Shown one piece after another: positions 27 through 45,728 of a stretch of DNA of 64,000 nucleotides. The position numbers and the translations under genes are program-made. Source of the DNA: Caldisericia bacterium. Its GTDB lineage: Bacteria; Caldisericota; Caldisericia; JAAYUI01. The stretch's first letter is position 1. Each line of letters starts with the position of its first letter. Location of the stretch: positions 736,001-800,000 of the forward strand of contig OY771555.1 in the NCBI GenBank assembly GCA_963674785.1, written 5' to 3'. Under the pieces are notes generated by a model. That model was not told the origin of the DNA. It saw only the letters and a program-made list of their open reading frames with translations, and made no database searches.

Positions 27-1070
27 TCAATCGTCATACTCGTATGTAACAAGCTCGTCTCTGATTGCCTCAATCTCCTCAGGAGTTGGCACAAATGGGA
101 AGTTTCTGAATTCCTCAGATGGTCTTTCATTTGCAAAAGGTCTGTTACAGGCGACTTCGCCGTCATTTCCAACACAACCTGAGGTCATGAATGGTCTTCC
201 AGATTCAACAAATTCCTCAGTGTCTGCACCAAAGTCTGTCACACGGTCACGATCATCAAACTTCATTTTTGTGATGTGAGTTGCTCCCTCATCAATCATA
301 TATCTTGCGAGTTGAATTCTTCTGTATGTTGGGATTGTTGGTCTTGGATGATTTCTGAGTGCTGAGCTTGGTTCAGGGTAGAACGAGAAAAGATGTGTTT
401 CCCCACCCATATCCTTTATTTTCTGGATGGATGAGATCATCTCTTTTTCGGTTTCACCAAGTCCAACAACATAGTGGCTTCCGACATTTCCCTCACCAAA
501 GGTTCTAAGTGCTGCTTCAAACAAGTCCCAATACTTCTGCCAGCTGTGTGGGCCACCGACATTTTTACCGCGGTGTTTGACAAAAAGCTCTTCAGTAGCT
601 GTATCGATTGCGATTCCAATTTTATCGATCCCTGCCTCTTTTAGCTTTGGGAAATCTGAATCAAACATGACAGTTGGTGATACAAGACCAGAAACAGGAA
701 CATCACTTACTTTTCTGATTCTTTTTGTGATTTCGATTGTGTCTTCAACAGATTTTCTTCTTGTGATCATCGAGATACAGACACGTTTTACGACATCATC
801 TCCCTTTTCGACAATCTTCTGAATTACTTCATCTGTTGAATGCAGAGGCCATGCCACCCTTATGAAGGATTTTTCCTCATATTCTCCCTCTCGCTTTGCC
901 TGCAATCCACAGTATGCACAGTTTGCCGAACATCCTTCTGGATATGTTAGCAGGATATTGATGCAGTAAAGCTTTGCGTCTCTGTAGAAGCTGCCACCCA
1001 TAAGGTCGAGTGTCATTGCAGCCGCTTGACTCAATCGAACATAATCTGGACTTGATTGGTTGTTACTCAT
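27..1070 (-). CDS. Radical SAM protein, biotin-synthase-related, LipS2-like (possible subunit of the two-component lipoyl synthase)
   Basis: CxxxCxxC motif (GCSANCAYC). C-terminal TSGC...ACNRP resembles the TxGCPxC(N/D)RP motif described for Thermococcus LipS2. Confidence 0.75.
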   Translation of the reverse strand: MSNNQSSPDYVRLSQAAAMTLDLMGGSFYRDAKLYCINILLTYPEGCSANCAYCGLQAKREGEYEEKSFIRVAWPLHSTDEVIQKIVEKGDDVVKRVCISMITRRKSVEDTIEITKRIRKVSDVPVSGLVSPTVMFDSDFPKLKEAGIDKIGIAIDTATEELFVKHRGKNVGGPHSWQKYWDLFEAALRTFGEGNVGSHYVVGLGETEKEMISSIQKIKDMGGETHLFSFYPEPSSALRNHPRPTIPTYRRIQLARYMIDEGATHITKMKFDDRDRVTDFGADTEEFVESGRPFMTSGCVGNDGEVACNRPFANERPSEEFRNFPFVPTPEEIEAIRDELVTYEYDD

Positions 1071-1077
1071 GCAACAG

Positions 1078-1106
1078 AGTTTGACATAATGGTTTGTTCA
1101 TTTCAA
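1078..1106 (-). promoter_or_regulatory. Putative sigma-70 promoter for a leaderless radical SAM transcript
   Basis: Minus strand TTGAAA-17 nt-CAAACT, 7 nt before the ATG at 1070; no SD. Confidence 0.45.
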
Positions 1107-1187
1107 GGAAGGTTGATATGGTGTGTTTTTATTACGAAAAAATTGATTAATCCAAATTATTCTCATTATTCCAGTCTCTTATCTCCG

Positions 1188-1215
1188 TTGACATTCTTTC
1201 CACAGCAAGTATCTT
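1188..1215 (+). promoter_or_regulatory. Putative sigma-70 promoter for a leaderless or near-leaderless NHL/thioredoxin gene
   Basis: TTGACA-16 nt-TATCTT, 8 nt before the ATG at 1224; no SD. Confidence 0.5.
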
Positions 1216-1223
1216 TTATAAGC

Positions 1224-3986
1224 ATGGTGGTTAATTTCTTTCGACGAAATCTTGCGACACTCCTTGCACTAATTCTCTTAGTGTCGGTCGTGCCAAAAGT
1301 TAGTGCTATAAACCCATCCCTTGGAAGTTGGGGGCTTGGTTATGGTCTGCTTGAAAGCCCTGTTGGTATTGCTGCTGGTGGCGGGATGGTTTTTGTCTCA
1401 GATGATGAAAAAGACGCAATCATTGTTATGGATACTGAAGGCAATCTCATCACAGAGAAAAATAAGTTTAACGGAAAAGAAATTAAACCAGCTGGTCTGT
1501 ATTTTTCAAAAGATTCAATTTTGTATGTCACTGACATGCTAAATGACAGATTGTTGATCCTAACTCCGAACCTCGATCTGATTTCTGAGGTATCTGAAAG
1601 TGAGATGAAAATCTCCGACCCAGTTGATGTCACTCTCGGAGATAACTCATATATATATGTGTTGTCGTCGGCAGACAGGAAAGTGTCGATTTTGACAAGC
1701 CATGGAAAGTATCTTCGTACAATTCTTTCCCCTGGTGTTTTTTCTGGTCAGCTTGCATCCCCCAGAGGGATTGATATCTCTGGAGAGTTGATTGCGATTT
1801 CTGATATGGGTGTTGGTAAAGCAAAGATAATTTCAGAATCACGTGGCGAACTCCGAACATATGGGATACCTGGAACTTATCCAAGTTCACTTTCAGCCCC
1901 TTCTGATGTATGCATGGATTCTACGGGTAATCTGTATGTTGTTGATAAAAATAATAATGATATTGCAGTTTATCCCAAAAGCGGGTTAGAGCCTTTTTCC
2001 TGGGGAAGATACGGTAAGGTTGGCAAGGCTGTTGACTTCTTTTTTTCAGATATTGAGCCCAGAGACTTTTCAGATTCACCAGGCAGACTCTGTAGACCCA
2101 CCTCAATTTCTATTGATGGTGACTGCGTATACATCGCTGATACGGGAAATTCTCGAATCCTTGTGACATCGCTTTCGGAGATTTGGAGAATCCCAAGAAT
2201 TTCGCTTGAGTTTTTTTCAAGTCAGAGGCTTGATGTTCCAAGGATGATTGCATCACCAAGTACTCTTCATTTTGGTAATGTCGATGGAACTCTTACAAAA
2301 TATGTGAATCTCGAGTTGACAAACAATCCAACCTCAATCGGACGTGCTTATATCCGTGGTGACAAATCAATCACCGTTGAACCAGAGATTTTTACTGGTT
2401 CTAATGTTAGGTTTAAAGTAACAGTCAACAGCAAGACCACCATAAAGAATATAAATTCAACCCTTGTTATCGAATCTATCACCGATTCAATCGATATTCC
2501 CCTTAGTGGAACTCACTCAAAATCTCCCGGTATTTTCTTTTCTTGCAACTCACAGTGTAGAGCTCAGATGAGAGATGAGGGTGCTTATGTTTCACTTGAG
2601 CTTGTTTCTCAAAATGGTTTTTCAGGGGATGTGAAGCTTTCCGCAACTCAACCAATTTATTCACCAGTCTGGGCAAGACCGGCAACAGATGTTGAAGATA
2701 TCAAACTTACAACCGTCGGAATTAACTTCCGTCAGGAGACTATTTCCCTAAGCTCTTCTGAGAAGAAAATGACCTCTCTGTCTGTTTATGAATCGGGAAG
2801 ACTCAGATCAGGTGTTTATTATTTTTCTGTTTTTGCTGAATCTGCCAATGATCCTTCCATTAAAGCTATCCACTCTATAACACTATATATAGAGAGTGAA
2901 TCGACTGGTGATGTTCAAGGCACAGTACTCTATGAAACATTTACAGCTCATTGGTGCAGTCCATGTGGTTATCATCGCGAGGCATCCTACAGACTTGCTG
3001 AGGAATATGGTCGAAGAAATATTATGCCTATAGCCTTCCATGTGATGGATGAGGATGATGAAACTGGCATGACAACTGATTTGAACTTTTCAAGATTCAA
3101 AATGTATGGAGGAACAGGCGTCCCCCTTTCAGTCATGAATGGAAAAACTCTAAATGTTTCTGGCAACGGGGAGGTTGGTTCAAAATTTGCCCCGGATCGA
3201 ATAAGGGGAAGAAAATACTCTGGAACGACTTTTGAATATTGGAAACTGAGAGCGGAGTATAATTCAATTCCAAGAGTAAATCCTTTGATAATCAAGCTCT
3301 CTGCTGAGATTGATGACAAAGGGGAAGGCTCTGTATACCTGAGAGTCGATGAGTCAAAATCCAATAGAGGACGCTTGGCGAGGGTTTATTTTTTAATTGT
3401 TGAAGATGGGATTGAATATTATGCCGAAAATGGTGAAATTCAGCACAACTTCGTTGTGAGGGATTTTTTAAAGCCAAATGAGACAGAGTCACCCTATTCA
3501 GATATTGTTCTTGGCAAGGAAAGAAATATCAACTTCAGTTTTGAGCTTCCGGATATGAATGAAGGCTTCGAGTTGAATCCCGACAATCTCACGTTGGTTG
3601 CTATTGTTGAGGACATAAAAACAAAAAATATTATCGGAAGCCACTGGATGGATTTGTCCGCCCCCGTGATTTGTACATCTGAACTGTTCACGTCTGGTGA
3701 TACCTCGCTTAATAGGGGTGCACAGTCAAAGGTCTATATTCATATAAGCAACATTGGAAGTTGTACAAAGTCCTTTGGAATCAATGTTTCCTTAGGTAGT
3801 GAATATATGGACATGGAATTGACCGATAACTTTTTTGTGATTACTCCAGGCGAGACTAAAACGGCAACATTATATCTTTCGCTTCTAAAGGTGATTGATA
3901 ATAAAAATGATTTATTTATCGATATTTCTGCCAAAGACAGTGACAATAAAACCTACACAAAAAAGGTAGTTTTTGGTAGTAAATAA
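1224..3986 (+). CDS. Secreted protein with NHL-repeat beta-propeller, Ig-like domains and an Omp28/thioredoxin-like CxxC domain (920 aa)
   Basis: Start moved from 1056 to 1224, which gives a signal peptide (MVVNFFRRNLATLLALILLVSVVPKVSA) just after a promoter. NHL repeats (PSDVCMDSTGNLYVVDKNN, PTSISIDGDCVYIADTGNSRI). ETFTAHWCSPC, then GVP and VYFLIVED...HNFVVR, typical of Omp28-like domains. Confidence 0.8.
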   Translation: MVVNFFRRNLATLLALILLVSVVPKVSAINPSLGSWGLGYGLLESPVGIAAGGGMVFVSDDEKDAIIVMDTEGNLITEKNKFNGKEIKPAGLYFSKDSILYVTDMLNDRLLILTPNLDLISEVSESEMKISDPVDVTLGDNSYIYVLSSADRKVSILTSHGKYLRTILSPGVFSGQLASPRGIDISGELIAISDMGVGKAKIISESRGELRTYGIPGTYPSSLSAPSDVCMDSTGNLYVVDKNNNDIAVYPKSGLEPFSWGRYGKVGKAVDFFFSDIEPRDFSDSPGRLCRPTSISIDGDCVYIADTGNSRILVTSLSEIWRIPRISLEFFSSQRLDVPRMIASPSTLHFGNVDGTLTKYVNLELTNNPTSIGRAYIRGDKSITVEPEIFTGSNVRFKVTVNSKTTIKNINSTLVIESITDSIDIPLSGTHSKSPGIFFSCNSQCRAQMRDEGAYVSLELVSQNGFSGDVKLSATQPIYSPVWARPATDVEDIKLTTVGINFRQETISLSSSEKKMTSLSVYESGRLRSGVYYFSVFAESANDPSIKAIHSITLYIESESTGDVQGTVLYETFTAHWCSPCGYHREASYRLAEEYGRRNIMPIAFHVMDEDDETGMTTDLNFSRFKMYGGTGVPLSVMNGKTLNVSGNGEVGSKFAPDRIRGRKYSGTTFEYWKLRAEYNSIPRVNPLIIKLSAEIDDKGEGSVYLRVDESKSNRGRLARVYFLIVEDGIEYYAENGEIQHNFVVRDFLKPNETESPYSDIVLGKERNINFSFELPDMNEGFELNPDNLTLVAIVEDIKTKNIIGSHWMDLSAPVICTSELFTSGDTSLNRGAQSKVYIHISNIGSCTKSFGINVSLGSEYMDMELTDNFFVITPGETKTATLYLSLLKVIDNKNDLFIDISAKDSDNKTYTKKVVFGSK

Positions 3987-4136
3987 GTTACAGATATGTA
4001 TATATTCATATCACAATGTGTAAATCATGTACAGCATGTGTTACTGGAACTCAAAATTACCCACTTTCATGAATATCCGCGTATAGTATTCTCTAATAAA
4101 TCCGTGCTTTGGTACAGAATAACAGGCTATCTGTGC

Positions 4137-4152
4137 TGGCACAGAATTTGCA
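4137..4152 (+). promoter_or_regulatory. Sigma-54 (RpoN) -24/-12 promoter of the giant-protein operon
   Basis: TGGCACAGAATTTGCA: GG and GC separated by exactly 10 nt, matching TGGCAC-N5-TTGCW. Predicted +1 near 4163 coincides with the 5' end of the folded leader. Confidence 0.8.
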
Positions 4153-4161
4153 TTATGTAGT

Positions 4162-4406
4162 CTCGGAAGGTGTACGTGCTACGCCAGACGTGGTTTTTTG
4201 TTCTACCCGTCCTGGTGTGTGCGGGTGGCGGTGATGATGCCCGACATCTGTACAAGCGTGCGACTTCTGCGATACGTTTGACCAGCATTTATCTACACAC
4301 ACCTATGTGGTTTGGTGTGTGCTTTGGCTCAAAGTAATGAGTCGGTTTATGTTGTTGTGGTCACTGATGGTCAGGACAGGAAGCTGTTCTGAAGTCCTCT
4401 TCCGGG
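4162..4406 (+). ncRNA. Long structured 5' leader (cis-RNA candidate, family not recognised)
   Basis: Closing helix CTCGGAAG(4162-4169)/CTTCCGGG(4399-4406). Inner helices 4171-4176/4249-4254, 4203-4210/4221-4228, 4296-4303/4314-4321, 4326-4331/4338-4343, 4279-4284/4358-4363 and 4371-4379/4384-4392. The SD (AAGGAGAG, 4421-4428) lies outside the fold. Confidence 0.65.
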
Positions 4407-4433
4407 CTTAAACCTATGTGAAGGAGAGCTTAA

Positions 4434-7400
4434 ATGAGAAAATTTGTAACATTTATGGTCGCATTAACACTTGTAGTGGCGGCTCTGGTACCTGCATTCT
4501 CTATCGTCAATGCTGACGGAGACAGAATCAGGGAAGGTGAACCAAACACACCTGCAACTATGGCTGCAGTCAGGTGGCATAAGGTCGGTTATGATCATGA
4601 AGGTAATATGCTTAACCCAAGCACCCTCGATCATACAGAGGTTGAAAGGGCTGGGCTTGATGGTACCGGGTACAGATTCTTCCCCTGGCAGGATGATGGT
4701 GAACAGATTTGGGGAAGGGCATCTGATGATGTGGCTTATGAGATGCCACGTTTATTACCAACTTCTGGAAGTCATGACTGGCTTGGTAGATTTGACGCAT
4801 CTAACTATGATTTCGACTACGATAATTCAGCTAACAACTATGCGTGGTGGACTGTTTTATACCTCAACATCGAACCAGATTCCGGTAATTCCCAGGAATA
4901 TAAAAAATGGTATGTAGTAATCGATCGTGATGGAAATGCCTGGTTTGACCCAGACGGAAAATTCCATCGTTGCGAACTCGATTCATCCGCAGACCCAATG
5001 TATTATGAGCCAGGTTCACTTACATACGTCGAGGGTTCATGTCGTACAAACCCAAAGGCTCTTCTTGACCCAATCCCAAGCAATAACACACAGGGACCAT
5101 ACAACCTTAAATTCGGTTCAAGAGCTGCTCTCGATAGAATTTATTTCTGGTGGAAGTATGACACAAATGGAAACCTTGTAGACAGAGTATGGAGACTTGG
5201 TTGGTCAGACATGGTCGACTACGATCCTGCACCAAACCTTGAGCACGGTGTTTGGGACCCAACAAACTCAGATACATGGTCAGTTGTTTCGTATATTCCA
5301 ACATATGACCCCTACACAAAAACACATATTCCAGATGCAGATGTAGATTGGGATGCAAAGCTTGACACAATCCCATTCTCACTCTCAGCAGATCCTGTGT
5401 GGCCAAATGTCACAGAGGGCGTAGAGTGTTATCATGATGCAAATGGCAACGGTGTCTATGATCCTTATGAGTTCATCTACAGAAAAGGTGCCGGATTCCC
5501 AGTAGGTCTCTTCACCTCATCAGTTCAGCCTGGTGATGTGAGAGTCACAAATGTAAGCACAGAAAATGGAATCTTCAAACAGAACCTTAGAGCAGGATCT
5601 GTTGTTGGTGGAGATGAGTTTGATGTTGGTGCAGTACTCCTCCCATTCAACCACATGAACCCTCCATCCGGATATCCAACATATGTGCATACACATGGCA
5701 AGGGAACAATCGATGGCAGATTTGATGATGGTGAGTTCATCTACTGGAAAGGTGCCGCTTCAACAACATTTGGAAACACATGGCTTGAAGTCCCTGCAGT
5801 ACCAGGTTCAACCGTTATTGCTGTTGCATCAGTAAACGGATTCGATCTTGCTGATGAAGTTGCCCTTTACGATCCGCTCACTGGAACATACTTCACCTCA
5901 ACAATCGATGACATTGATACAACTGTAACTCCTCCACTCATCACACTCGATAATGCAGTTACATTCGCATTCCCACTCTACTCATCATTCTTTGAGATTG
6001 GTGAAGTAGAGATCGGTGACATCAGACTTACAACTGTCAACGAGAGACACAACAACAATACAAGATCATGGGATTGGCACGGCACATGGTGGACAGATGC
6101 ACTTATCCTTCTCGAGGTTCTCGAGGGTGGATGTCATACACCACTTTATAACATCACTGTTGAATCAAACCTTTGGATGGGTGGATACCCAACAAATGGT
6201 GAATTTGAAAAGGGTGATGTTCCATCTGAGGCAACTGCAGCACTCCACTCACCAAATGGTGACATTGTAGCAGCAGCTCAGAGAATTCAGAAAACAACCG
6301 TCCTTGACCCAACAGGTTTCGAGTTCGAAGTCCCAGCAACAACATTTGAGAACATCAAACTTGAGTATAGAGAATATCTTGGACTTGAAATATTCAAAGA
6401 TGATGGAATCAACAACAACGTTGGTGAACCACAGTTCACAGTAAACTGTGTCCGCGGAGACATTGTTGATGACTATTATGTGTACGACAGCACAGAAGAG
6501 TTTGTTGGCGCAGACGATGTCGAAACACAGCTTGACTTTGAATGGTCAAGACAGACACAGTCATTCTCAAACCTTGAGATGTTTGTTGATGTCAGTGGCG
6601 AAGGCGCACTTGGTGTTGGAGAGCCAATCTATCTTGATGAAGACCTTTCAAATTCAATCTCAGCAGGCGACCTCAGAATCACTGATGTTGAAGTCGTCAG
6701 AGGCGACAGCAACATCATCGCTTATCCATCAGGATCAAGAGTAACTGCCGGTGACGCTGATGTTGATTATTTCACAACCTTCCCAGCAATCGGTACTCCA
6801 GAACTCAGCCCAATGCCAGCGGGCGTAGAATACTACGACCAGGCTCATGGATGTGTTCCTCCAAATGATACATATGATATTGGTGAGCCAATCTATTATC
6901 AGGCTCCATCAACCGGTATCGCAACACTCTATTCAAACGATTTTAATAACCAGAACAACCCAACAGGAACCGCACCAAACCTTACATTCCATGACAACAC
7001 AGGTCCTGGTTCTGCTTTAAGTTATCCAGCATATAGCTTCACAAACACCGTTGATAACTGGGGTGAGCTTGACGAAACAAACTCCGGTCTCTTCATTAAT
7101 GGTGGTGCAGCTACATCAGTTACTGACAGAGAGAATAATGATCCTGGCGGACAGATTGGAAACCCTTCAGCCGGTAATTTCGAAGTCTGTTTCTTTGATG
7201 ATAATGCTCCTCCAGTTGGTGCAACAAGATGTAGTGAGCTTTATTCCGGTACAATCATCCTTAATCCATCACTTGGCATGGAAGACAACAAGATATTCAC
7301 AGCTGATGTATTTACAGAACCAAATCCTGCATGTTTGAGTGATTGGTGGCCACCAGCAGTCATCTTCAGATATGATAGCCCAAACAGTTTCTATGCATTA

Positions 7401-10400
7401 ACGCTTGTTCCTTATGACGGCTCATATGTATGGTATGATTACTCCAATGCCGATGGTAGCTTCATTGATAATTTCTATGGTCCAGCCCCAGATACCTATC
7501 TTATTAACATCATACATTACGAACCAGCAGACGCTGGAAACACTGGATATACAGGAACATCAATCTTCCAGACAGAGCTCAATTCCTTTGATCTCAATGA
7601 TTGGATGAATGTTGAAATCAGAGCATATGCAAACCTTGCTGGATTCCTTGATTACACAGATATCCTTATCGGTGGAACACTTATTAGTGGATCATTCCCA
7701 AGCTCAATTAATCCAGTAGGTTCACCTCCAGGTGGATTTGGTTTCATGGCAGGAACATATGATTCAACATATGTTGGAGCAGTTAGCCCACTCTATTTTG
7801 ACAATGTGACCCTCTCAACATATCTTGTTGGGGCAACACTTGACACAGTCAGACTTACCGATGTTTGGGTAGATGGCACAAAATATCCAGCAGGTTCAAA
7901 AGTTCTTGCCGGTGACTTCTACAGACTTGAAAACCCAGTTTATGGTGTAACAACAGGTAAAAATACAAATGCCAGATATATGGATATCGAAGTATTACCT
8001 GGTGACATCGGACTTAAATATGAAATCGACGGCTTCTCACCAGAAGACGAAGAGTTCAAACCACTTAAGATTGAGAAAACCTCACATATTAAAGTTTCGC
8101 TTGATCACGAACTTGAAGGTGTTTATGCAACCGGAAAAGTTATCGGTGACAAGAGAAATAGACTTTATTACAGACCTGATTCCTTCTATGTAAACACAAT
8201 CCCAGCCGAGTATCAGGTTGTTTACTCATCACCTGCAGAGGCAGAACGCAACTTCTTCCACCCACACACTTCAATTCAGGGTGACAAGGTTTATGTCTCA
8301 CTCAGAGAGACAGATACAAATATCTCCCCATACTTTGCAACAACATATCTTTCCGAGTATCTTGAGGAAATTATTGATACAACAGCAATTATCGATGCAG
8401 AAAATCCAGTGTATGAGTTTGAATTCACACCATACAGAGGAACAATTGTTGATGATATTGGACAGGAATTACCAATTCTCCTCAGAGCCTATATGGATGA
8501 TGGTGGAATCCAGACATCACCTGATGACAGCAGATTCTCATACTCATTCATGCTCGATAAGAATCTGGCCGACAGAACAGTTGACGCTGGAAGCGTAGCT
8601 TATTCAGAATACAACTTCATTGACCCATGGCATATGCAGAAGAAATGGGAGATTGATGAAGCCTATGCAAACTATTGGAACCAGGCATACACAAGAGCCG
8701 CAAGATTTATTCCAAACCCATACGAAGTTGAACACATGGCAGAATGTGGTCTCTCAGACAACTACGATTGTTATGGCGTAGAAAAACTTCATGTTGAGCC
8801 AGAAGGAATTGAGATTATTCCAAGCTCACCTTGTGTTGACCCACTTTCATACAGATATCCAAACATCAGTCTTAAACTCAAAGCCTATGACAACCCGGAC
8901 GATGTCAATGACCCAGCAGGTTACACAATGGCATTCCCAACCACCGAAGATTCCGTTGCTATCGCTACATACAACGTAAACGGTGCCGGTATCAGATATA
9001 TGTGTACAATGAGAGCATGGAACATGAGTCATACTGTTCCAGATGATTTCTATGCCTACTTCATTGTTCAGGTAAATGATGACGGTTCATGGATGGGTTG
9101 GAGAATGAATGAAGCAAACCTTCCAGGTATTGTTGACTTCACAGACTCATTCTCAGTGATGCAGTCATATCCATTCCTTCAGAAGATGAATAACCGCGGA
9201 AACGATTCTCATGATATTGGCGACTATGATTGTTCAGTTGGCACAGGTGTTGTTGACCTTTGCGGTTCTGGATGGCCACCACTTGGTGATGTCACCATTT
9301 ATGATACTTACTCAAGTTATTTCTGTGATCCAACTTGGACATATCCAAACATCCCATACTATGGAACAGTTTATCACTATGGTGTAAAAACATACATCAC
9401 TCCAAAAACTGAAACTGACGAAGGTGGACTTATCTCTATCGTTTGTCAGCCAATGAATACCGAAGAAGATCTTCATATCCGTGTTCATACAAGCAATGTT
9501 GAGGTTGACTACAATAGCACAAACCTTAAACACGGTAACAACGCAACATACTTCAGATTTGACAGATCAGGTATCCACCAGGGTAGCACAGGTGGTTCAG
9601 ATCCTAACCAGTACTATGTTCCAAGCGTTTCAAACGTTCACGACACAAACCCACCAGGAATCAGAAACCTTATGATGGCTGAGACAGTTGATTACTGCGA
9701 CGTAATCACACTCAAGGTTCTCCCACCAGATACTGATCTTAACTTCAACAATCTCTACATCGTTGACCATGCTCTCCAGTACAGTGATGTCGAATATGCA
9801 GGTTCTGCAACAGGTGGAGATCCACTCGTTGTGCTCGATACACCAGAGAGATGGATTAGACCTGATTATAACCCACTCTGCGTCTTCAGACCTCTTTCTG
9901 ACGATGAAAACACAGATGTAAGATGTTACCCAGGTGGACAGACTCATCTTATGAGAGTCGAGAATTCACTTAGAGGTAATGGTTTCAATGCAACTCCAGC
10001 ACTTTGGAGAAAACAGTTTAACAAACTCGGAACTGAGTTCTTTGGACTTACCGACTATGGTCTGTATTTTGAGCTTACTAGAGAAGACTCAGGGTACTGG
10101 GGTGTTCCAACAACATTCGCAGATGGAATGATCAAGAGAATTGAGATCACCGGACCGTTTATGACTCCACTTGACCTTGATCCTGAATTTGATTCAATCA
10201 AGTACAGATCAGGAACAGCAACCGGATCTATTCTCGGATATCAGTATAAAGATCTTAGATATGTTCCAATCAAGTATGATTATTCAGGTAAAATTGTTGT
10301 CGACACACTCAATTACATGACCTACGAGCTTGGACCATCAGACTTCTCAACAACAACCAGCCCTGCATGTACAATTCCTGGCGATTTCATTACCTTCTCA

Positions 10401-13400
10401 GATTACAACATGTATCTTGCTGTCGGAAGAGAACTTGATTATAGATTCGTCGTCAGACCACAGATTAGTGGTATTCAGAGTTCACAGAGAGTAATGGTCT
10501 TTGACGAGCTTATTCCAACTGGACCAGGTAGAATTGATATTACTGTCTGGCTTCAGGACGGAACAAAGAAGATTTTCCAGGATTGCTGTGTTAAGCCACC
10601 AGCAGATGGTATTGATGTAGCCGGTATCAAGATTGAAGGTATGCCACACTTCGTCACTGTTGATGAAGACAATATGCTCAATCTTAAACTTACAGAAGGT
10701 TACGGAATCGAGTCAGTAGGACCACCAGCTGAATACGGTGCAGGAATTCAGGAATATCAAGAGTGTAACGATGCACTTGTTTATGTATGGCAGGATAGAG
10801 GAATCTATGATCCAGTGGAAAGACTTTATGATTTCGCTGGTGACGGATACTGCTCAATGGCTCCACAGTCAACAGATATTTCCGAAATTTACTCACCATA
10901 CACAGAAGATGATGATCTCAACTCTGATGGAAAAATTAGCTTCGAAGATTATGAAACTGAGATCATTGGTACATATGATATTAACACAAACACATGGACA
11001 AACGGTCTTATAGATGCAAGAACATTCCATAGACAGAATGGTGAATACTCATTCAATGTTCATACAAATACAGTAGGTATCGACTTTGGTTCCTATGGAA
11101 CAGAAACCGAACCTGATCACGTTATTGCACCTGATGAAACACTCGATGTAACTGTTACTGCTTACAAGTACGGTGACGACAATAACGACAGAAGCTTCAG
11201 ACCATTCTGGGGTGGACGTGATACCCTTAATGACTCAGCATTCAGTCATGAGGTTTATCTTGCAGGTAGAGCATCAGCATTTGTTGAAGCAAGAGAAGAT
11301 CTCACAGCAACCGTAATTCCTGAGCCACTTACAGCTGGATGTACACCAGAGCTTCTTGACCCAACTGCACCTCTCACATTTGAGGTCAAATGGGCAAACG
11401 GTCAGCCACTCAACCTCAGGGATGAAGGTGTTCCAGATCCAAAGGGTGGAAACGAAGTCAAGAAAAATGATGCTTGGATGCATCTTTTCAAAGATCCACA
11501 TCCAGATGATCAGTATTATTATCCAGGTCAGATGCTTCCACAATATTACTGGCTTAGAACCGACCTTCATAACGATGACTGGACCCAGATTGGCAACCAG
11601 AGAATGTACGGTTATGACACAGATCCATTCAACCCAATCGAGTTTAGCTGGAATCCAAAAGAGGGTGTTTATGAGTTCGAGGGATTTGTTGCCAACGATA
11701 AAGGTAACTTCGAAACGGTCATTTACTCACCAGACAGAAGACATAAAGCAACAGTTAATGTAAACGTTGAGCTTCCAAAAGTTTCTTACGATCTCCTTCC
11801 AAGACAATACTCTATTAGAGGGTACGATAATGATTCATCATTCGATCCAAATCTTGTCTTCCATGTAAACGAAAGTGAAGATTTCGTAGCAACTGGTGCT
11901 GATCTCAGATACTATGCAACTGTGCTTACATTCAAAAATGCCCAGGGTAAATTGATCCAGGGTCTCGCTGAGTCAACATCAGTTTGTCAGGGTGGAGATG
12001 GAATGTACGCAAGATTCACTCCATTCTTTACAAGACCTGAATACTTCAACTGGGTAAGTGCTCCAAACACATCATTACGCTATTTAAGAAGATATCCACA
12101 GCATGCTCAGGCATACAACTATTATCTTGGTTCAGATCCAAATGGTGGTCGTGGTGTTATGGTTATGATCGCTGATCTTGATGGTTCTGGGTCTGCCGGT
12201 GATATTTGGGAAGAATATATGCAGTTCGGATTCGCATATGCTGATTCAGGATTGAGAGTTGGTGGAGATAGCGGTCCTCGTGCTCCGTATTATCCAACAA
12301 TAAACTACATGTACGAAGATGGAACATATAATCATTGGCAAGCATGGGATGGACCATATGAAGCTGGTTTCAACTATGCTGAACCTGCTGGATATGGTGT
12401 CGGTTGTATTTACAATGAAGAGTATGAAAAACTTTATATGTTCCCAGATACAAATAGAGACTTTACATTCGATTATCAGGATTCATTGAATATTGATAAT
12501 AGAGGTCAGGGTCTCGTATTCGTTTTCGTTGATGATAAATTGAAATTTGGTGCAACCGTTGGTGTTACAAAACATGCTCTTAAACCAAAATTCAGTGACA
12601 TCTATGGTGGTACTGATCCATATAATGAATTCTCACCACAGAGAACTGCAACAAGATTTGTTCACGTAAAACAGGGTAATGCCGATTATGGAACAAGTGA
12701 CGGAGTGTACGCTCTCGACTGGGACGCAATGCCAGACAGAGTTGTAAAAGCTGATTATGTAAATGCTAAGGTTTTCTGGGCGGAAACTAGAGAAGAAGTT
12801 GGAAAAGACGTCCTTGATGAGAACAACTACGACCTTGCTTATGGTGTTGAAAACCATCTTTGGGTTGAGTTCACACCTGCTGATCCAAGAGACAATCCTG
12901 TTGTCCAGGGTCTCACAGTTACAATTGCTGATAATGACAAAGAACATCCATGGAATGGTACTAAATCCGAGAATTCAATATTCTCAACAATTATTAAGGG
13001 TGACGTAAATCCAAACGTGAGAGCTGCTCAGATGTATGTTACACCAACAGGTACTGGTGCCGACATCATGGCTCTTAATAAACGTGGAATCACCTATGGT
13101 ATATTGTTCGATCACTGTACTTCATACGGAATTGTTAACTTCGACGTAATTATGTCAATTCAGCTTATTGCTGACTCACTTGAGCCACTTAAAGTCGGTG
13201 TCCCAGGAACTCTTGTTGTAAGTGCTCTCAAGACTGCCGGTGGCGAGCCAATCGAAGGCGCAACTATCCACATCAAGGGTGCAGGCGTTGAGATGGAGAA
13301 GAAGTCAAATGCTGAAGGTAAAGCAGAGTTCAGCATCACTCCAACAGAACGCGGAAGAATCTTGGTTACTGCTGAAGCAGACGAGATGAAGGGAACCTAT

Positions 13401-14315
13401 ACAACAGCCTTTGTTGAAAGATACGTTGCACCACCAGTACTCGACCTTGACCCAATCAATTCTGTTACCGGTGAGAACAGTGTGACTGTTAAAGGAAGAA
13501 CAAACGAAGGTACAAGAATCACAATCAATGGAAGACCTGCAACTGTTGAAAAAGACGGTTCATTCCAGTCAGTTATCAAATTACAGCCTGGAAAGAATTC
13601 AATTGTTGTTGTTGCTTCAAATGAGTCATCACAGACAATCACAAAGATTCTTGTTATCGAATCAAGAGTTAATGCCTCAGAGATCATCCTTGATCCAATC
13701 GGTGAATATGAAAACGTCACAGAGATCAGACTCCGTGGACATGTTGAACCAGGTACTGTTGTCAAAGTTAAAAACGTGACAATTGGCGAAGAAGTTGATG
13801 CTGTTGTTACAAATGATGTATTCGTTGCTGATATTGCAGTCCAGCCAGGAAACAACGATTTTGAGATCGTTGCCATTGATATGCAGACTAACAAAGAAAA
13901 TACCTTGACTGCTAGCACTTATATCTGGACCAAAACAACAATTCTGCTTGCAAGAAATTCAGACGTTGCTGTTGTTGACGGTACACCACAGAAGATAGCC
14001 GTTGCACCAATCGTAAGAGATGGCGTTGTGATGGTTCCGCTTGAAGCAATAGCTCAGATATTTGGAGTTGCTCCTACAGCTGTAGGTGATGCAATAACGC
14101 TTACATGGGGTTCAAACACATTGATTATCTCAGCAAATTCAGCTAGTGCTCCTCTAAATGGTGCCCAAGTTGACCTTACAGTTGCCCCAATAGTTGAAAA
14201 TGGAATTATGATGGTTGCTGCAAGAGATATTGAGTATCTCAAACCAGATAATGGTGCAGTAGAAGTAATGTTCGATGCAAGCGGTGTTGGCATCGTTATT
14301 TGTAGAAGAAAGTAA
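4434..14315 (+). CDS. Giant secreted surface protein, paralog 1 (3293 aa), with C-terminal Ig-like and copper-amine-oxidase N-terminal (stalk) domains
   Basis: SD AAGGAGAG; signal peptide. Core motifs shared with the next three genes (NNTQGPY, DVNDP, YPGGQTH, KLGTEF..LTDYG, QDCC, IDARTF, AYKYGDDNNDR, PQYYW.RTDL). C-terminal APIVRDGVVMVPL and APIVENGIMMV stalk-type motifs. Strong codon bias. Confidence 0.9.
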   Translation: MRKFVTFMVALTLVVAALVPAFSIVNADGDRIREGEPNTPATMAAVRWHKVGYDHEGNMLNPSTLDHTEVERAGLDGTGYRFFPWQDDGEQIWGRASDDVAYEMPRLLPTSGSHDWLGRFDASNYDFDYDNSANNYAWWTVLYLNIEPDSGNSQEYKKWYVVIDRDGNAWFDPDGKFHRCELDSSADPMYYEPGSLTYVEGSCRTNPKALLDPIPSNNTQGPYNLKFGSRAALDRIYFWWKYDTNGNLVDRVWRLGWSDMVDYDPAPNLEHGVWDPTNSDTWSVVSYIPTYDPYTKTHIPDADVDWDAKLDTIPFSLSADPVWPNVTEGVECYHDANGNGVYDPYEFIYRKGAGFPVGLFTSSVQPGDVRVTNVSTENGIFKQNLRAGSVVGGDEFDVGAVLLPFNHMNPPSGYPTYVHTHGKGTIDGRFDDGEFIYWKGAASTTFGNTWLEVPAVPGSTVIAVASVNGFDLADEVALYDPLTGTYFTSTIDDIDTTVTPPLITLDNAVTFAFPLYSSFFEIGEVEIGDIRLTTVNERHNNNTRSWDWHGTWWTDALILLEVLEGGCHTPLYNITVESNLWMGGYPTNGEFEKGDVPSEATAALHSPNGDIVAAAQRIQKTTVLDPTGFEFEVPATTFENIKLEYREYLGLEIFKDDGINNNVGEPQFTVNCVRGDIVDDYYVYDSTEEFVGADDVETQLDFEWSRQTQSFSNLEMFVDVSGEGALGVGEPIYLDEDLSNSISAGDLRITDVEVVRGDSNIIAYPSGSRVTAGDADVDYFTTFPAIGTPELSPMPAGVEYYDQAHGCVPPNDTYDIGEPIYYQAPSTGIATLYSNDFNNQNNPTGTAPNLTFHDNTGPGSALSYPAYSFTNTVDNWGELDETNSGLFINGGAATSVTDRENNDPGGQIGNPSAGNFEVCFFDDNAPPVGATRCSELYSGTIILNPSLGMEDNKIFTADVFTEPNPACLSDWWPPAVIFRYDSPNSFYALTLVPYDGSYVWYDYSNADGSFIDNFYGPAPDTYLINIIHYEPADAGNTGYTGTSIFQTELNSFDLNDWMNVEIRAYANLAGFLDYTDILIGGTLISGSFPSSINPVGSPPGGFGFMAGTYDSTYVGAVSPLYFDNVTLSTYLVGATLDTVRLTDVWVDGTKYPAGSKVLAGDFYRLENPVYGVTTGKNTNARYMDIEVLPGDIGLKYEIDGFSPEDEEFKPLKIEKTSHIKVSLDHELEGVYATGKVIGDKRNRLYYRPDSFYVNTIPAEYQVVYSSPAEAERNFFHPHTSIQGDKVYVSLRETDTNISPYFATTYLSEYLEEIIDTTAIIDAENPVYEFEFTPYRGTIVDDIGQELPILLRAYMDDGGIQTSPDDSRFSYSFMLDKNLADRTVDAGSVAYSEYNFIDPWHMQKKWEIDEAYANYWNQAYTRAARFIPNPYEVEHMAECGLSDNYDCYGVEKLHVEPEGIEIIPSSPCVDPLSYRYPNISLKLKAYDNPDDVNDPAGYTMAFPTTEDSVAIATYNVNGAGIRYMCTMRAWNMSHTVPDDFYAYFIVQVNDDGSWMGWRMNEANLPGIVDFTDSFSVMQSYPFLQKMNNRGNDSHDIGDYDCSVGTGVVDLCGSGWPPLGDVTIYDTYSSYFCDPTWTYPNIPYYGTVYHYGVKTYITPKTETDEGGLISIVCQPMNTEEDLHIRVHTSNVEVDYNSTNLKHGNNATYFRFDRSGIHQGSTGGSDPNQYYVPSVSNVHDTNPPGIRNLMMAETVDYCDVITLKVLPPDTDLNFNNLYIVDHALQYSDVEYAGSATGGDPLVVLDTPERWIRPDYNPLCVFRPLSDDENTDVRCYPGGQTHLMRVENSLRGNGFNATPALWRKQFNKLGTEFFGLTDYGLYFELTREDSGYWGVPTTFADGMIKRIEITGPFMTPLDLDPEFDSIKYRSGTATGSILGYQYKDLRYVPIKYDYSGKIVVDTLNYMTYELGPSDFSTTTSPACTIPGDFITFSDYNMYLAVGRELDYRFVVRPQISGIQSSQRVMVFDELIPTGPGRIDITVWLQDGTKKIFQDCCVKPPADGIDVAGIKIEGMPHFVTVDEDNMLNLKLTEGYGIESVGPPAEYGAGIQEYQECNDALVYVWQDRGIYDPVERLYDFAGDGYCSMAPQSTDISEIYSPYTEDDDLNSDGKISFEDYETEIIGTYDINTNTWTNGLIDARTFHRQNGEYSFNVHTNTVGIDFGSYGTETEPDHVIAPDETLDVTVTAYKYGDDNNDRSFRPFWGGRDTLNDSAFSHEVYLAGRASAFVEAREDLTATVIPEPLTAGCTPELLDPTAPLTFEVKWANGQPLNLRDEGVPDPKGGNEVKKNDAWMHLFKDPHPDDQYYYPGQMLPQYYWLRTDLHNDDWTQIGNQRMYGYDTDPFNPIEFSWNPKEGVYEFEGFVANDKGNFETVIYSPDRRHKATVNVNVELPKVSYDLLPRQYSIRGYDNDSSFDPNLVFHVNESEDFVATGADLRYYATVLTFKNAQGKLIQGLAESTSVCQGGDGMYARFTPFFTRPEYFNWVSAPNTSLRYLRRYPQHAQAYNYYLGSDPNGGRGVMVMIADLDGSGSAGDIWEEYMQFGFAYADSGLRVGGDSGPRAPYYPTINYMYEDGTYNHWQAWDGPYEAGFNYAEPAGYGVGCIYNEEYEKLYMFPDTNRDFTFDYQDSLNIDNRGQGLVFVFVDDKLKFGATVGVTKHALKPKFSDIYGGTDPYNEFSPQRTATRFVHVKQGNADYGTSDGVYALDWDAMPDRVVKADYVNAKVFWAETREEVGKDVLDENNYDLAYGVENHLWVEFTPADPRDNPVVQGLTVTIADNDKEHPWNGTKSENSIFSTIIKGDVNPNVRAAQMYVTPTGTGADIMALNKRGITYGILFDHCTSYGIVNFDVIMSIQLIADSLEPLKVGVPGTLVVSALKTAGGEPIEGATIHIKGAGVEMEKKSNAEGKAEFSITPTERGRILVTAEADEMKGTYTTAFVERYVAPPVLDLDPINSVTGENSVTVKGRTNEGTRITINGRPATVEKDGSFQSVIKLQPGKNSIVVVASNESSQTITKILVIESRVNASEIILDPIGEYENVTEIRLRGHVEPGTVVKVKNVTIGEEVDAVVTNDVFVADIAVQPGNNDFEIVAIDMQTNKENTLTASTYIWTKTTILLARNSDVAVVDGTPQKIAVAPIVRDGVVMVPLEAIAQIFGVAPTAVGDAITLTWGSNTLIISANSASAPLNGAQVDLTVAPIVENGIMMVAARDIEYLKPDNGAVEVMFDASGVGIVICRRK

Positions 14316-14335
14316 GTAGTACCATAGATTGACAT

Positions 14336-14388
14336 TTATGCTGTACCACCCCGATTAGGGTGGTACAGCCGAGAAAGAACAGATTTAT
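14336..14388 (+). promoter_or_regulatory. Conserved junction element copy 1: TTAT, 12-bp hairpin, CGAGAAAGAACAGATTTAT
   Basis: Stem GCTGTACCACCC/GGGTGGTACAGC (14340-14369), no U-tract; flanks match copies 2 and 3. Confidence 0.75.
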
Positions 14389-14536
14389 TTATTACGGTTT
14401 AAAAAAGATTGAAGATAATGAAGAGATTGATAAAAGAAGCGAGTAAAGAGAGATTGGTTTACCGTGAAGTTTTGGGTGAACCAAAGGTACATGACAAACT
14501 TCGATGCGGGGTTTGTCTGTCCGAAGGAGAGGTTAC

Positions 14537-17500
14537 ATGAGAAGAACTATAGTGATGCTCGTTGCAGTTACTATGATCATGGGAATATTTGCCCCAGTTC
14601 TTGGCTTAGCAAATGTTAATGCTGCGCCAAACAACGAGGTAATTCAGGGTAACGAACATGCCACACATATCATAGCCCAGTGGCATCAGGTTGGGCATGA
14701 TGAGTATGGCGACCCCCTCCCTGGTGGAAAATCCTTTCCATGGCAGCATGAAGGCACAAGCCTTAATAGCTACTGGGGAAGTGAAGAATATGGAATGCCA
14801 AATGCTATTCTTGCAAGGGCAAGTTCTGGTATTGCAAGACGCGTAAGGCAGAATAATGCTGCATCAACAGTACAGCCAATGCTCTGGACAAGAGTGTATC
14901 TCACAGTTATGGCTGACAACGGCGCTTCAAGACCCATTGTGGACGATAGGGGTGATTATAAGGGCGTCGGACTCTGGTATGTTGTAATGGACACCGCAGG
15001 GCAGGTCTGGTTTGATATGGACGGACACTTCCATGATGGAAGGTATCTTGCTACTGCCGACCCATTCTCACCATATTACCAGTATGAGGTTGATGATTCT
15101 GGCAATTCTTACGGTTCATGTCTTATCAACCCAATGGCCAAAGTTGACCCAACTGAAGCAAACAATACTCAGGGCCCATACCAGTTCTCCGAAGAGACTT
15201 CCACTGGTGAAGAAAATGAGCTCTATGTTGAACCATGTTATTTCTGGGTGAGACCAAACCTCATTAATAAAGTTAGCTCCCTCGATACAAACACAACTTG
15301 CGATGCTTATGCAAATCATACTCTTACAGGTGAGTCAAGGGCATGGCAGCTCGGTATCCTCTCAAGACCAGATTATCTTGGACAGGGTATTTCAAGTCCT
15401 CTTGGTAATGTCTCAGATGGTCTTGTAAGATCTGGTGAGTGGGATGTTGGACAGTCAACCATTCCATTCCTTGCAAATGAGCTTTTTGCAGATGCATTTG
15501 GCAACCTCAATAGTGCTGGTCCTGCACCAACAAACGGAACATATGATCCAGGCGATCCTATCTATAGAGATGTTGATGGTTCAAACTCCGTTACCGTTGG
15601 CGACATAAGACTTTCAAATGTTACTCTCGGTGTTCCTCCCGCAGTTACAACATTCCTCGGTGGAACCATTGTTGCTGCAGGCGACAGAGACATCAACACA
15701 TTTGGTGGTGCAACAGGTTGGAGCAACAATCTTTACTCAATGCCTCCAGGTTATGTTTACTGTGCCGCTGGCACTGGTGATGGAACAGAGCTTGAGTTCA
15801 GACATCTTGGAAATCCAACCACAAATGGCGAGTGGTCAGTTATTACTCCAGCAGGAACGTCATTTATTGCAGTAGAAGATGCTTCTGAAATCACTGCTGG
15901 ATCCACAGTCAGAGTTGGACCAAACAACCTTGGTCAGAGCCAGATTTGTGTTGTCACAAATGTTTGGAATGCACCACAGGCTGCGACAATGTATAACAAC
16001 TACAACTCTATAGGTTGTAATGGTTATCACAGATCATGGTATGACTATTACATCCAGGGTTTTAACGTTGGTGATTATGTTTATTTTGGTTCAACCAATG
16101 GTGGAGAGATGCTTAGAATTTCTGCTCTCTATTATTATGGTTATATGTATCACTATACTTGGGGATGTAGCGGCTCATCATCCTATACTGCTGTCAGATA
16201 TACTAGAGAACCACAGTTAAATCATGATCAGTATAGCTATAACGGAAGCAGCTACTGGTATGCTTATGGATATGATGTAATGACAAGAGTAGAACAAGGT
16301 CTTCTTCTTGATTGTGTTCTTGGAATCGACTGCGCAGCAGGCACTCCTGTTGTTCCAGTTGGTTACCAGCCAGGTGACTTTGTCTACATGCAGTTGGATC
16401 CAACAGCAAATCAGATCCAGGAAGGCGATATCCGACTTTCAAATGTCGATGTTCACAGAGATATTGCTGGAAACGTAATTGGACATGGTGCTTGGGAATT
16501 TGACGCTCTTGTTATGATGGAAGTCCTCTTTGCTGATCCAAATGACCCAAGATACCATGGAGCAGTTGGAAACCAGGACTGGAAAACATATTCAAATGAT
16601 CCTTCATACGATCTTATGGATTCAGACTGGAATGACATCGATCATCCATACGCACATTGCATGCCAACATATGATTTGACAGTTGAGTCAGATTTCTGGC
16701 AAGGTGAAAGAGTATGGGTTGATGATCCTGCAAATCCAGGTTCAATGATTTCTGAATGGCAGGGAGTTATCCCATCCGTTACTGCATGTGCTCTCAGATC
16801 ACCAAACGATGATGTTGACCCAGCACATCACAGAATCGCAAAACAGACAATCCTTGGCGATGAACCAGATGATTTCTTTATTCATAGCGCAACAATTCAT
16901 GGTGTAACACCTGACTACAGAGAATATCTCGGACTCGAACTCTTTGTCGATAGTGACTATGACAACAACCCAATTCCAAACCTTCCAGCAAACAATCCTG
17001 TGGCACTTGACCTTCATGATAACTATCAGCGTGGAGATGTCTGCTCAGCATATGCTGGTGCAACAAGCAGAGCCCCAGACCTTGATCTTTGGAGAGACCT
17101 TTCAACCATTGATGACTCCAAAGATTATCCGAAATTTATTGACCTTGATAATCCAGCTGCAATTCCTAATGACCCTGGTATGTATGGTTGCAACGAGCCA
17201 ATCTACTTTGACCTTGACCAGGATGGAACAGTTTCCCCAGGCGACAGACGTGGTTCAGATATTGATATCAGAACCGGTACAGTAACTGAAGGTTCACTTG
17301 ATAGCTTTGTTGCAGGCACAATTGTTCAGCCAGGTGATGTTGATGTAGGAAGAATTCTTTCCAGATTCCTTGATCCAACACCGGGCTTAACATACATGCA
17401 GCCTGTTTACAAGTGGTATGATATCCCACACGAAATCTCAAGACTTCCATCAGGATCTCTTGATTTAGGCGAACCAATTTATTACGACCACCCTGTTCTT

Positions 17501-25111: not shown

Positions 25112-25154
25112 GTATAATTGTTCGAATACGAATTTAGTTTGAAACTTTAAAAAG

Positions 25155-25213
25155 TTATCCTTTCGGGTGCGTGGATGAAACCCGCCCCGAAAGGCGAGAA
25201 AGAATTGATTTAT
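25155..25213 (+). promoter_or_regulatory. Conserved junction element copy 2: TTAT, hairpin, CGAGAAAGAATTGATTTAT
   Basis: Stem CCTTTCGGG/CCCGAAAGG with bulged extension (25159-25194). The 3' flank matches copy 1 at 17 of 19 nt. Confidence 0.75.
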
Positions 25214-25330
25214 AGTTGGTTTGATAAGCAAAAAAATGGACTTCATTACTAGATTTATATCGGTTGAAAAAAAGGTTGAAGTGGCCCAAGATTGGCCCCT
25301 TGGTGGCTTAAGTCTAAAAGGAGAGGTCAG

Positions 25331-36361: not shown

Positions 36362-36383
36362 TTGTAGTAGATAGGATTGAAAA

Positions 36384-36439
36384 TTATCACTCTGACCCCA
36401 AATGGGGTCAGAGTGCGAGAGAAAAAAAGATTGATTTAT
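36384..36439 (+). promoter_or_regulatory. Conserved junction element copy 3: TTAT, 12-bp hairpin, CGAGAGAAAAAAAGATTGATTTAT
   Basis: Stem CACTCTGACCCC/GGGGTCAGAGTG (36388-36415), no U-tract, same flanks as copies 1 and 2. Confidence 0.75.
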
Positions 36440-36552
36440 TTGATTATGAATTATGATTGGTTACGCGAAACTAGAAGGAACGTTAGATCGCGGTTTCGAT
36501 CACTCCCAGGGGGGAGAGTCGTGAACCTTCAATTAGGTGAAGGAGAGAGCAA

Positions 36553-45660: not shown

Positions 45661-45692
45661 TCTTCCAACCTTGTAAGAATTACTCTTGAACT

Positions 45693-45728
45693 AAAAAAGC
45701 CCCGGAGAAATCCGGGGCTTTTTCTTTT
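45693..45728 (+). terminator. Intrinsic (likely bidirectional) terminator ending the giant-protein operon
   Basis: AAAAAAGCCCCGGA-GAAA-TCCGGGGCTTTTTCTTTT. Confidence 0.9.

Follow-up and report, generated by a model that had tools for sequence, protein, structure and literature searches.

The locus analysed here raises the question of how a bacterium with a small genome produces a message of about 41.5 kb, and of what the structured RNA at the beginning of such a message contributes to it. The window, that is, the whole stretch of 64,000 nucleotides under analysis, corresponds to C1:736001–800000 of a genome (G000) of 2.23 Mb, which is available as a single contig and is 92% complete by marker genes. 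According to the ORF list, four tandem giant open reading frames of 3293, 3535, 3689 and 3035 aa span positions 4434–45660 on the + strand, and the operon is closed by a strong intrinsic terminator at 45694–45723 (+), made of a 13-bp stem and a T-rich tail. Signal-peptide-like N-termini are found in all four giant ORFs, as are C-terminal Cu_amine_oxidN1 and Glucodextran_B domains, and three of the four also have Ig-like domains (Big; Big_1). The region of interest lies inside the 447-nt gap (3987–4433) between an NHL-repeat gene (1056–3986) and the start of the 3293-aa ORF at 4434, and within this gap no ORF of at least 60 aa is found on either strand. A 24-codon ORF starting at 4337 was considered and rejected, as it has no Shine-Dalgarno (SD) sequence and its frame is broken by a 1-nt indel in the ortholog G003, within the most conserved block. 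On balance we favour, as one joint claim, that positions 4164–4433 form the ∼270-nt 5′ untranslated leader of an mRNA of ∼41.5 kb that encodes four giant secreted surface proteins, and that this leader is a lineage-specific structured 5′ UTR acting in cis as an mRNA stabiliser and a translation-initiation platform.

The leader is preceded by a well-defined promoter. The −24 GG and −12 GC elements of sigma-54 promoters (as TGGCAC-N5-TTGCW) are found at 4138–4153 (+) as a perfect motif match, TGGCAC-N5-TTGCA (TGGCACAGAATTTGCA), the −24 element being placed within the palindrome CTGTGC-TG-GCACAG, and no sigma-70-like site is present on the + strand of 3800–4600. The pattern TGGCAY-N5-TTGCW has just seven matches genome-wide, one of them being this site, and four of the seven are located upstream of genes for paralogous giant secreted proteins, whose leaders measure 134–272 nt. 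The corresponding genome content, RpoN and an AAA+ enhancer-binding protein, is also encoded: rpoN is recognised by its Sigma54_DBD domain (E 6.3e-46), and the sole strong Sigma54_activat match in the genome is one REC-AAA+-HTH_8 (NtrC-type) protein (E 3.2e-72). Among relatives, the motif is found 274–301 nt before the ATG in all nine family-f1 orthologous loci, which cover three genera. Transcription of the leader from a sigma-54 promoter dependent on the single NtrC-type activator of the genome is directly supported by these observations. A literature search, supplements aside, returned no publication joining Caldisericota and sigma-54, nor any joining sigma-54, S-layer protein and enhancer-binding protein.

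Promoter geometry places the predicted transcription start at 4163–4165 (+), 12±1 nt past the C of the −12 GC. We have compared the region 3800–5300 with four public runs, namely three RNA libraries from two studies and one DNA run, using assembled contigs and not raw reads. Contigs from relatives of ∼90–93% identity join the leader to the coding sequence in all three RNA runs; their likeness to the window begins at 4225, 4225 and 4262, and the contigs extend ∼50, 39 and 64 nt further in the 5′ direction, so that in these relatives' assembled contigs the ends correspond to positions ∼4175, 4186 and 4198, ∼11–35 nt past the predicted start. None of the three RNA-library contigs reaches upstream of this start, and the contigs of the DNA run cross the whole region. 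In one RNA run (X8) the depth of the contig holding leader and gene is 69.9, that of the contig holding the upstream gene 4.6. The RNA contig ends are a hint at the start site, coming from assembled contigs of relatives rather than from a mapped 5′ end. They fit, as does the promoter geometry, the start that had been predicted in a first-pass annotation of this DNA, and a start downstream of the region is not indicated.

The folding energies evidence a structured RNA. The fold of 4162–4406 has −96.1 kcal/mol, whereas 200 dinucleotide shuffles average −77.13±4.32 (z −4.39) and none of them is as good, and the nine orthologous leaders fold with z values from −1.1 to −3.5. The sense folds of the nine orthologs, at −77 to −101 kcal/mol, are far more stable than the antisense ones, at −52 to −71 kcal/mol, as is expected where G-U pairs matter. 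That the leader is non-coding and strand-specific is directly supported, and the long structured leader proposed in the first-pass annotation holds in these respects, as it folds better than its shuffles, on the + strand, in a stretch without coding capacity. A cmscan search of 3900–4600 against Rfam 15, on both strands and with E up to 10, gave five matches, all with E of at least 1.7; the best of them scored 23.2 bits, where the gathering score is 52, and 15.5 bits, where that of L10_leader is 44, so that no riboswitch, leader or EAR-type family stands above its gathering score in this region, in line with the earlier statement that the leader matches no known riboswitch. A search for repeated motifs found only GUGUG, UGAUG and GGUUU enriched, which is of low meaning, and the G+U content of 0.607 was dropped as an outlier feature, being only within the top 1.2% of genome windows.

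Homologs of the leader are few. A DNA BLAST search in 61 relatives matched it only in G001 and G003, from the same genus, a further 22-nt match in G011 (E 0.0056) being judged to be due to chance. A wider search was carried out with the conserved N-terminus of the giant protein (alignment A2) and found relatives of this protein in 25 of 93 Caldisericota genomes, confined to the families f1, f5 and f6; the upstream regions were examined at 15 of the 30 loci returned, nine from family f1 and six from family f5. In family f5 all five informative loci lack the sigma-54 motif and have a TTGACA-type (sigma-70-like) promoter with a leader of ∼75 nt, the sixth locus beginning 26 nt upstream of the gene, too short to count. 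Searches of metagenome contigs by protein patterns gave 597 pattern matches and no relatives, and those by a leader DNA pattern gave 12 matches, all unrelated when examined. Also within the genome of the window, the paralogous sigma-54 leaders (contig C1, 660957+, 686299+ and 602954−) have no alignable similarity to this one.

Comparison of the orthologous leaders results in a division in two parts. Over the last ∼145 nt the identity to the G000 leader is 0.82, 0.72, 0.63, 0.62 and 0.59 in G003, G001, G002, G009 and G008, respectively, well over the identity at third-codon positions of the gene's first 1200 nt, which in the same order is 0.53, 0.49, 0.47, 0.47 and 0.49; this indicates purifying selection on the 3′ module. 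Over the first ∼130 nt the corresponding values are 0.60, 0.50, 0.56, 0.47 and 0.52, about the third-codon level. The 5′ domain (4164–4269, +), with identities to G000 of 0.47–0.60, keeps its length, its G+U-rich composition and its foldability across orthologs, and does not keep its sequence. A bipartite leader, with a fast-evolving G+U-rich first ∼105–125 nt followed by a conserved ∼145-nt module of four hairpins, is thus directly supported. The first-pass annotation had described instead one closed multibranched architecture, and in fact the isolated 4162–4406 segment does fold into a multibranched form; what is conserved, however, is the succession of the 5′ domain, four tandem hairpins and the SD sequence. 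Plain MAFFT alignment of the whole leader followed by RNAalifold gave a poor consensus (−8.2).

The four tandem hairpins, which we designate H1 to H4, are found at matching places in 9/9 orthologs. H1 (4296–4321, +) pairs the arms CACACACC (4296–4303) and GGUGUGUG (4314–4321) around the loop UAUGUGGUUU and has a CACA/UGUG core in all nine; being a (CA)n/(UG)n repeat hairpin, its register is ambiguous and its covariation is weak for this reason. In the RNA contigs a C4302>T change replaces one G-C pair of H1 by G-U, and the variants at 4305 and 4307 fall in its loop. H2 (4326–4343, +), with arms GGCUCA (4326–4331) and UGAGUC (4338–4343) and loop AAGUAA, was picked up by the terminator scan as terminator-like; its six pairs are standard in all nine sequences, and two of them are altered on both sides (CG/UA and AU/CG). 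It is followed by a conserved U-rich single strand at 4346–4356 (+), which in the alignment (A4) reads UUUAUGUUGUU here and UAUUGAUGUU in the other genera. H3 (4371–4392, +) has a 9-bp stem, a GAAG loop and a covarying core (4374–4377 with 4386–4389), the four core pairs being standard in all nine sequences and two of them altered on both sides (AU/GC in both cases). H4 (4392–4409, +), formed by AAGUCC-UCUUCC-GGGCUU with arms at 4392–4397 and 4404–4409, covaries as well: its six pairs are standard in the nine orthologs, and the outer pair is CG in six sequences, AU in one and GU in two. H4 is present in the minimum-energy fold of G000 if the folded sequence extends 40 nt into the coding region. 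An anti-SD role for the CUCUUC of the H4 loop was discarded, this motif being absent in 7/9 sequences.

Taken together, the hand-curated helices H2–H4 have standard pairs in 144/144 cells, and 5/16 pairs are altered on both sides (CG/UA and AU/CG; AU/GC twice; CG/AU). An alignment guided by a covariance model (model R1, alignment A5) gave 82.9% standard pairs in 217 cells, against 26–44% when partners were slid by 1–3 columns, with 8/25 pairs altered on both sides and a covariation score of 0.277, against 0.186±0.020 in shuffles, none of the 500 reaching 0.277; these values are to be read with the fact that A5 was fitted to the proposed structure. In this alignment H4 is out of register in three sequences and H2 likewise in three, and for this reason the helices were curated by hand. 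The nine ortholog sequences stand for about five or six independent lineages and were all used to build the model, which makes the covariation statistics weak. When run on the 93 genomes, R1 recovered its nine training sequences and two marginal matches of ∼24 bits (G008:C140:98523 and G052:C32), with no independent members; the marginal match G008:C140:98523 lies before a downstream paralog. The model is specific to one ortholog group, with one strong match per genome in 9/11 f1 genomes and none in the paralogous leaders. The covariation support for the 3′ module is real but statistically thin, and the leader RNA is a candidate new motif for Rfam-type curation, with a known range of nine genomes from one family. 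The alignment of orthologous leaders had been proposed in the first-pass annotation, which named lack of covariation, folding no better than shuffled controls and a start downstream of the region as outcomes that would speak against it; none of these was found, since compensatory changes occur in three hairpins, the fold beats its shuffles and the evidence on the start fits.

A distinct scenario results from the analysis of the 5′ end. The first-pass annotation had the two ends of the leader joined by a closing helix between CTCGGAAG (4162–4169) and CTTCCGGG (4399–4406). The eight pairs of this helix, one of them U-G, can be formed and occur in the fold of 4162–4406. However, positions 4399–4406 are the loop and the 3′ arm of H4, so that closing helix and H4 are mutually exclusive; the CUUCC loop that the helix requires is present only in G000 and G003 among the nine orthologs, full-length folds have 5′–3′ end pairing in G000 alone (1/9), and even there appending 40 nt of coding sequence removes the helix from the minimum-energy fold. 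For the GGAAG at the 5′ end, full-length folding gives a partner 60–95 nt downstream in six orthologs (p 0.79–0.97) and at about 132–145 in G003, its pairing being weak in G002. For G000 the predicted folds offer a candidate closing helix of the 5′ domain, P1 (+), which pairs 4164–4169 and 4171–4176 with 4257–4262 and 4264–4269. A full-length fold with P1 and H4 in place of the closing helix is 3.0 kcal/mol worse (−97.6 against −100.6), and the P1 fold is the minimum-energy fold of every truncated G000 transcript from 110 to 235 nt. When 110-nt transcripts are folded, a downstream CUUCY or UUUUC serves as partner of the 5′ GGAAG in 9/9 orthologs; at 125 nt the 5′ end of G009 takes a different partner. 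Since composition-matched shuffles likewise pair at least five of their first nine nt in 56–77% of cases, P1 is plausible, and not demonstrated, as the 5′-end helix suggested by these predicted folds. The closing helix of the two ends is at most a species-specific alternative conformer. A role of the 5′ GGAAGG as a STAB-SD-like ribosome trap was rejected, its GGAGG-like form being found in genus g2 only.

The first-pass annotation had also pointed to an alternative pairing of TGACCA (4279–4284) with either of two copies of TGGTCA (4358–4363 and 4368–4373). This pairing is available in G000 and, in wobble-compatible form, in G003; neither G001 and G002 nor the other two genera have anything corresponding to it. 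The two copies form a direct repeat, TGGTCA-CTGA-TGGTCA (4358–4373, +), which can also fold as a 6-bp wobble hairpin and is lineage-specific: G000 and G001 carry it, G003 has it with one mismatch, and G002 as well as genera g2 and g3 lack it. With its 10-bp spacing it resembles sites of winged-helix response regulators, and together with the palindrome around the −24 element it might suggest that sites past the promoter, such as TGGTCA-N4-TGGTCA, act at the DNA level by binding a transcription factor, as roadblock or activator, the RNA folds being incidental. We regard this as extremely improbable: neither G002 nor two of the three genera have the repeat, and the compensatory changes are wobble-compatible and strand-specific, as also seen in the sense and antisense folding energies, which points to selection on the RNA.

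The same pairing, which in G000 encloses H1 and H2 and gives alternative folds, has to be considered along with the terminator-like appearance of H2, as the two could make of H2 and its U-rich tail a regulated intrinsic terminator, with the upstream RNA choosing between termination and read-through in the manner of an attenuator or riboswitch. Indeed, H2 followed by TTTATGTTGT was flagged in the scan, its stem covaries, and the U-rich tract behind it is conserved. However, the stem is weak (−7.4 to −8.9 kcal/mol across orthologs) and the tail has 4–6 U among its first 8 nt, with only 4 in genera g2 and g3; a conserved anti-terminator to compete with H2 was not found, the sequence before H1 being the fast-evolving part; and the RNA contigs pass H2 into the gene in all three RNA runs. 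Tandem simple hairpins with variable loops also differ from the conserved multi-helix junction of a riboswitch with its invariant unpaired nucleotides, and the Rfam search gave no riboswitch or leader match. Regulated termination at H2 is thus a rather improbable account of the module.

Beyond H4, the leader continues with AAACCU (4410–4415), a spacer and the SD sequence AAGGAG (4421–4426), a segment (4410–4426, +) which possibly forms a weak CCU:AGG masking hairpin. AAACCU and AAGGAG are both present in the seven representatives counted, and the ACCU core is kept in 9/9 sequences, with the form AAGACCU in genus g3. In 5/9 minimum-energy folds the SD sequence is joined, by 3–4 bp only, to the invariant ACCU that lies nine to ten bases before it, and AAGGAG is predicted to be unpaired with a mean probability of 0.38 in G000 and of 0.31–0.65 across the nine orthologs. 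The earlier view that the SD stays free is not borne out by these values, which describe it as partly paired.

A partly masked SD is one of the features in favour of a reading in which H1–H4 and their invariant flanks (GAGUC-UAUUGAUGUU and ACCU) would be bound by a dedicated RNA-binding protein as a translational operator, with the binder coupling translation of the first giant protein to export or surface assembly, in a logic like that of CsrA-FliW on flagellin mRNA or of S-layer autoregulation. Conservation peaks in the SD-proximal 145 nt and not at the 5′ end, the stems covary while the flanking single strands are constant, and the motif is limited to one ortholog group, in 9/11 f1 genomes, without extending to paralogous leaders. 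Against this, no candidate binder is apparent: searches of the genome (single contig, 92% complete by marker genes) found neither CsrA nor Hfq, there is no RNA-binding gene in the neighbourhood, and the loops of the hairpins differ freely among the orthologs in both sequence and length, an unusual trait for the target of a loop-reading protein. We consider such an operator, with its coupling to export or assembly, unlikely.

The length of the operon brings in another possibility, namely that an EAR- or put-like leader RNA, or a hairpin recruiting a NusG paralog of LoaP type, renders RNA polymerase termination-resistant over 41 kb; processivity over this length was one of the two roles suggested in the first-pass annotation. 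The operon is indeed very long and its leader long and structured, Rho is encoded and would threaten untranslated gaps, and the three intergenic gaps between the giant ORFs, of ∼180 nt each, contain strong hairpins. The LoaP system depends, according to PMC12691694, on the NusG paralog, on a hairpin of UNCG type and on a leader terminator that is NusA-dependent. The search for a NusG paralog (LoaP/RfaH/UpxY) that had been suggested returned one NusG-family gene, a single PF02357 match at C1:100747, and no paralog, and the hairpin loops in G000 (UAUGUGGUUU, AAGUAA, GAAG and UCUUCC) include none of UNCG type. On the + strand of 4434–24400 and 26000–45900, the parts of the operon scanned, the sole strong intrinsic terminator is the one at the operon end, at 45694–45723; the intergenic gap at 25080–25310, within 24401–25999, was read by eye only and has a hairpin without U tract. 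In addition, the f5 relatives express similar giant genes with a ∼75-nt leader, in 5/5 informative loci. The LoaP-dependent dfn and mln leaders and EAR have in common with this locus a leader RNA before an exceptionally long operon, with a hairpin and a terminator-like element, and differ from it in that the NusG paralog, the UNCG hairpin, an Rfam match and internal intrinsic terminators in the scanned parts are absent here. With one NusG gene, no EAR-type Rfam match and no strong terminator inside the scanned parts, the proposed processivity finds no support, and we judge antitermination by this leader to be very improbable.

We thus return to the reading of the leader as a stabiliser and translation-initiation platform, which rests on analogy with known leaders. 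Transcription of a 41.5-kb message takes about ten minutes or more, which exceeds ordinary bacterial mRNA half-lives. The genome encodes RNase J, RNase Y and Rho, and RNase E/G was not found in it (92% complete by marker genes, single contig). In a cell with RNases J and Y, a paired 5′ end and dense hairpins up to the ribosome-binding site may slow both 5′-end-dependent exonucleolytic and endonucleolytic entry, and a decay slowed in this way would let a message that needs many minutes of transcription outlast its own synthesis. The leader, being G-rich, C-poor (G 0.27–0.32 and C 0.17–0.21 in all nine orthologs) and structured, might also offer Rho little loading room ahead of the first ribosome, and the weak ACCU:AAGG pairing, together with H4 beside the SD, could set the rate of translation initiation.

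Leaders of slpA type are ∼100–200 nt long, and the present one, of ∼270 nt, serves a 41-kb four-gene operon. According to PMC10221546, ∼80% of Gram-positive mRNAs have half-lives below 7 min and slp mRNA one of 15 min, the Lactobacillus slpA transcript being stabilised by a 5′ UTR stem-loop to a half-life of ∼15 min. The likeness (PMC10221546) lies in a long untranslated leader on a very abundant surface-protein message, in predicted stem-loops from near the 5′ end to the ribosome-binding site, and in the stabilising role proposed for them. There is, however, no sequence or Rfam relationship between the two, the promoter here is a sigma-54 and not a housekeeping one, and the SD is predicted to be partly masked rather than exposed, which counts against the 'exposed RBS' model of slpA type. 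In B. subtilis, 5′ structure and a strong SD are described as a protective logic for 5′ stabilisers (PMC3997798, PMC5737220). The B. subtilis aprE leader stem-loop and the structured hbs 5′ UTR with its initiating ribosome operate in a comparable setting of RNase J and RNase Y with no RNase E/G; the B. subtilis stabilisers are short elements of the extreme 5′ end, whereas in the present leader conservation falls on the four-hairpin 3′ module and 5′-end pairing is statistically indistinguishable from chance. In fact, a helix within a few nt of the 5′ end, as in slpA, ompA and aprE, is predicted in 9/9 truncated transcripts and also in 56–77% of shuffles, and this chance-level frequency counts against a stabiliser. 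So does the distribution of conservation, the 5′ domain being the least conserved part of the leader and the 3′ module strongly conserved, a pattern at least equally compatible with a specific binding partner or a translational operator. The stability half of the function inferred in the first-pass annotation appears plausible by analogy.

These results bear on a phylum, the Caldisericota, that is barely studied, and in which giant surface proteins occupy several per cent of the 2.2-Mb genome. We give little credence to the further notion that the four hairpins constitute an operator of a new class, being either a protein-read link of translation initiation on the 3293-aa protein to secretion or surface assembly, or a protein-independent anti-Rho or antitermination RNA acting directly on RNA polymerase in a phylum that has no NusG paralogs; if true, either form would be a lineage-specific layer of post-initiation control over sigma-54 activation. 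The locus offers a concrete handle on how a bacterium with a small genome produces a 41-kb message, in the form of one promoter, one activator and one RNA module.

The sigma-54 promoter and the long leader of the giant-protein operon are a feature of family f1, since in the sister family f5 the orthologous giant genes (loci L033, L034, L036, L038 and L040) have a leader of only ~75 nt and a promoter of the TTGACA type that lies in conserved A-rich surroundings. These f5 loci do retain a hairpin, which directly adjoins a ribosome-binding site of the same sequence, AAGGAGAG(A)GC. The -24 element of the leader promoter sits within a perfect palindrome, CTGTGC-TG-GCACAG (window 4131-4146), which was flagged by the terminator scan and is missing from the f1 genomes G003 and G001.

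Within family f1, the covariance model of the 3' module of the leader yielded a sole match outside its training set (G008:C140:98523-98695, locus L068; 24.4 bits, E 5.6e-4), just 5' of a 3024-aa downstream paralog in the same operon, and this match hints that the SD-proximal hairpin arrangement recurs ahead of internal operon genes. Each of the three gaps separating the giant ORFs in the window (14340-14393, 25160-25215 and 36388-36442) contains a strong GC-rich hairpin without a U tract, directly followed by CGAGARA(A)GAA..GATTTAT, a motif common to all three. Hairpin and motif thus make up a module that recurs from gap to gap and may serve, within the polycistronic RNA, for processing or for protection of 3' ends.

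Beyond the operon terminator lie three tandem proteins of ~550-585 aa (window 45824-51036), all with several Cu_amine_oxidN1 repeats, which may be partners or anchors for the giant proteins. In a wastewater metatranscriptome (X8), the contig carrying leader and gene of a ~92%-identical relative has a depth ~15-fold that of the upstream-gene contig, which suggests strong in situ expression of the giant operon.

Elsewhere in the genome (G000:C1), perfect sigma-54 motifs at 660957 (+), 686299 (+) and 602954 (-) precede paralogous genes for secreted proteins of ~3000 aa, with leaders of 247, 134 and 253 nt, respectively, that are G+U-rich and not alignable with the window leader. The genome encodes a single NtrC-type activator (C1:1003242-1004645), and its main sigma-54 regulon looks to be the giant-protein family.
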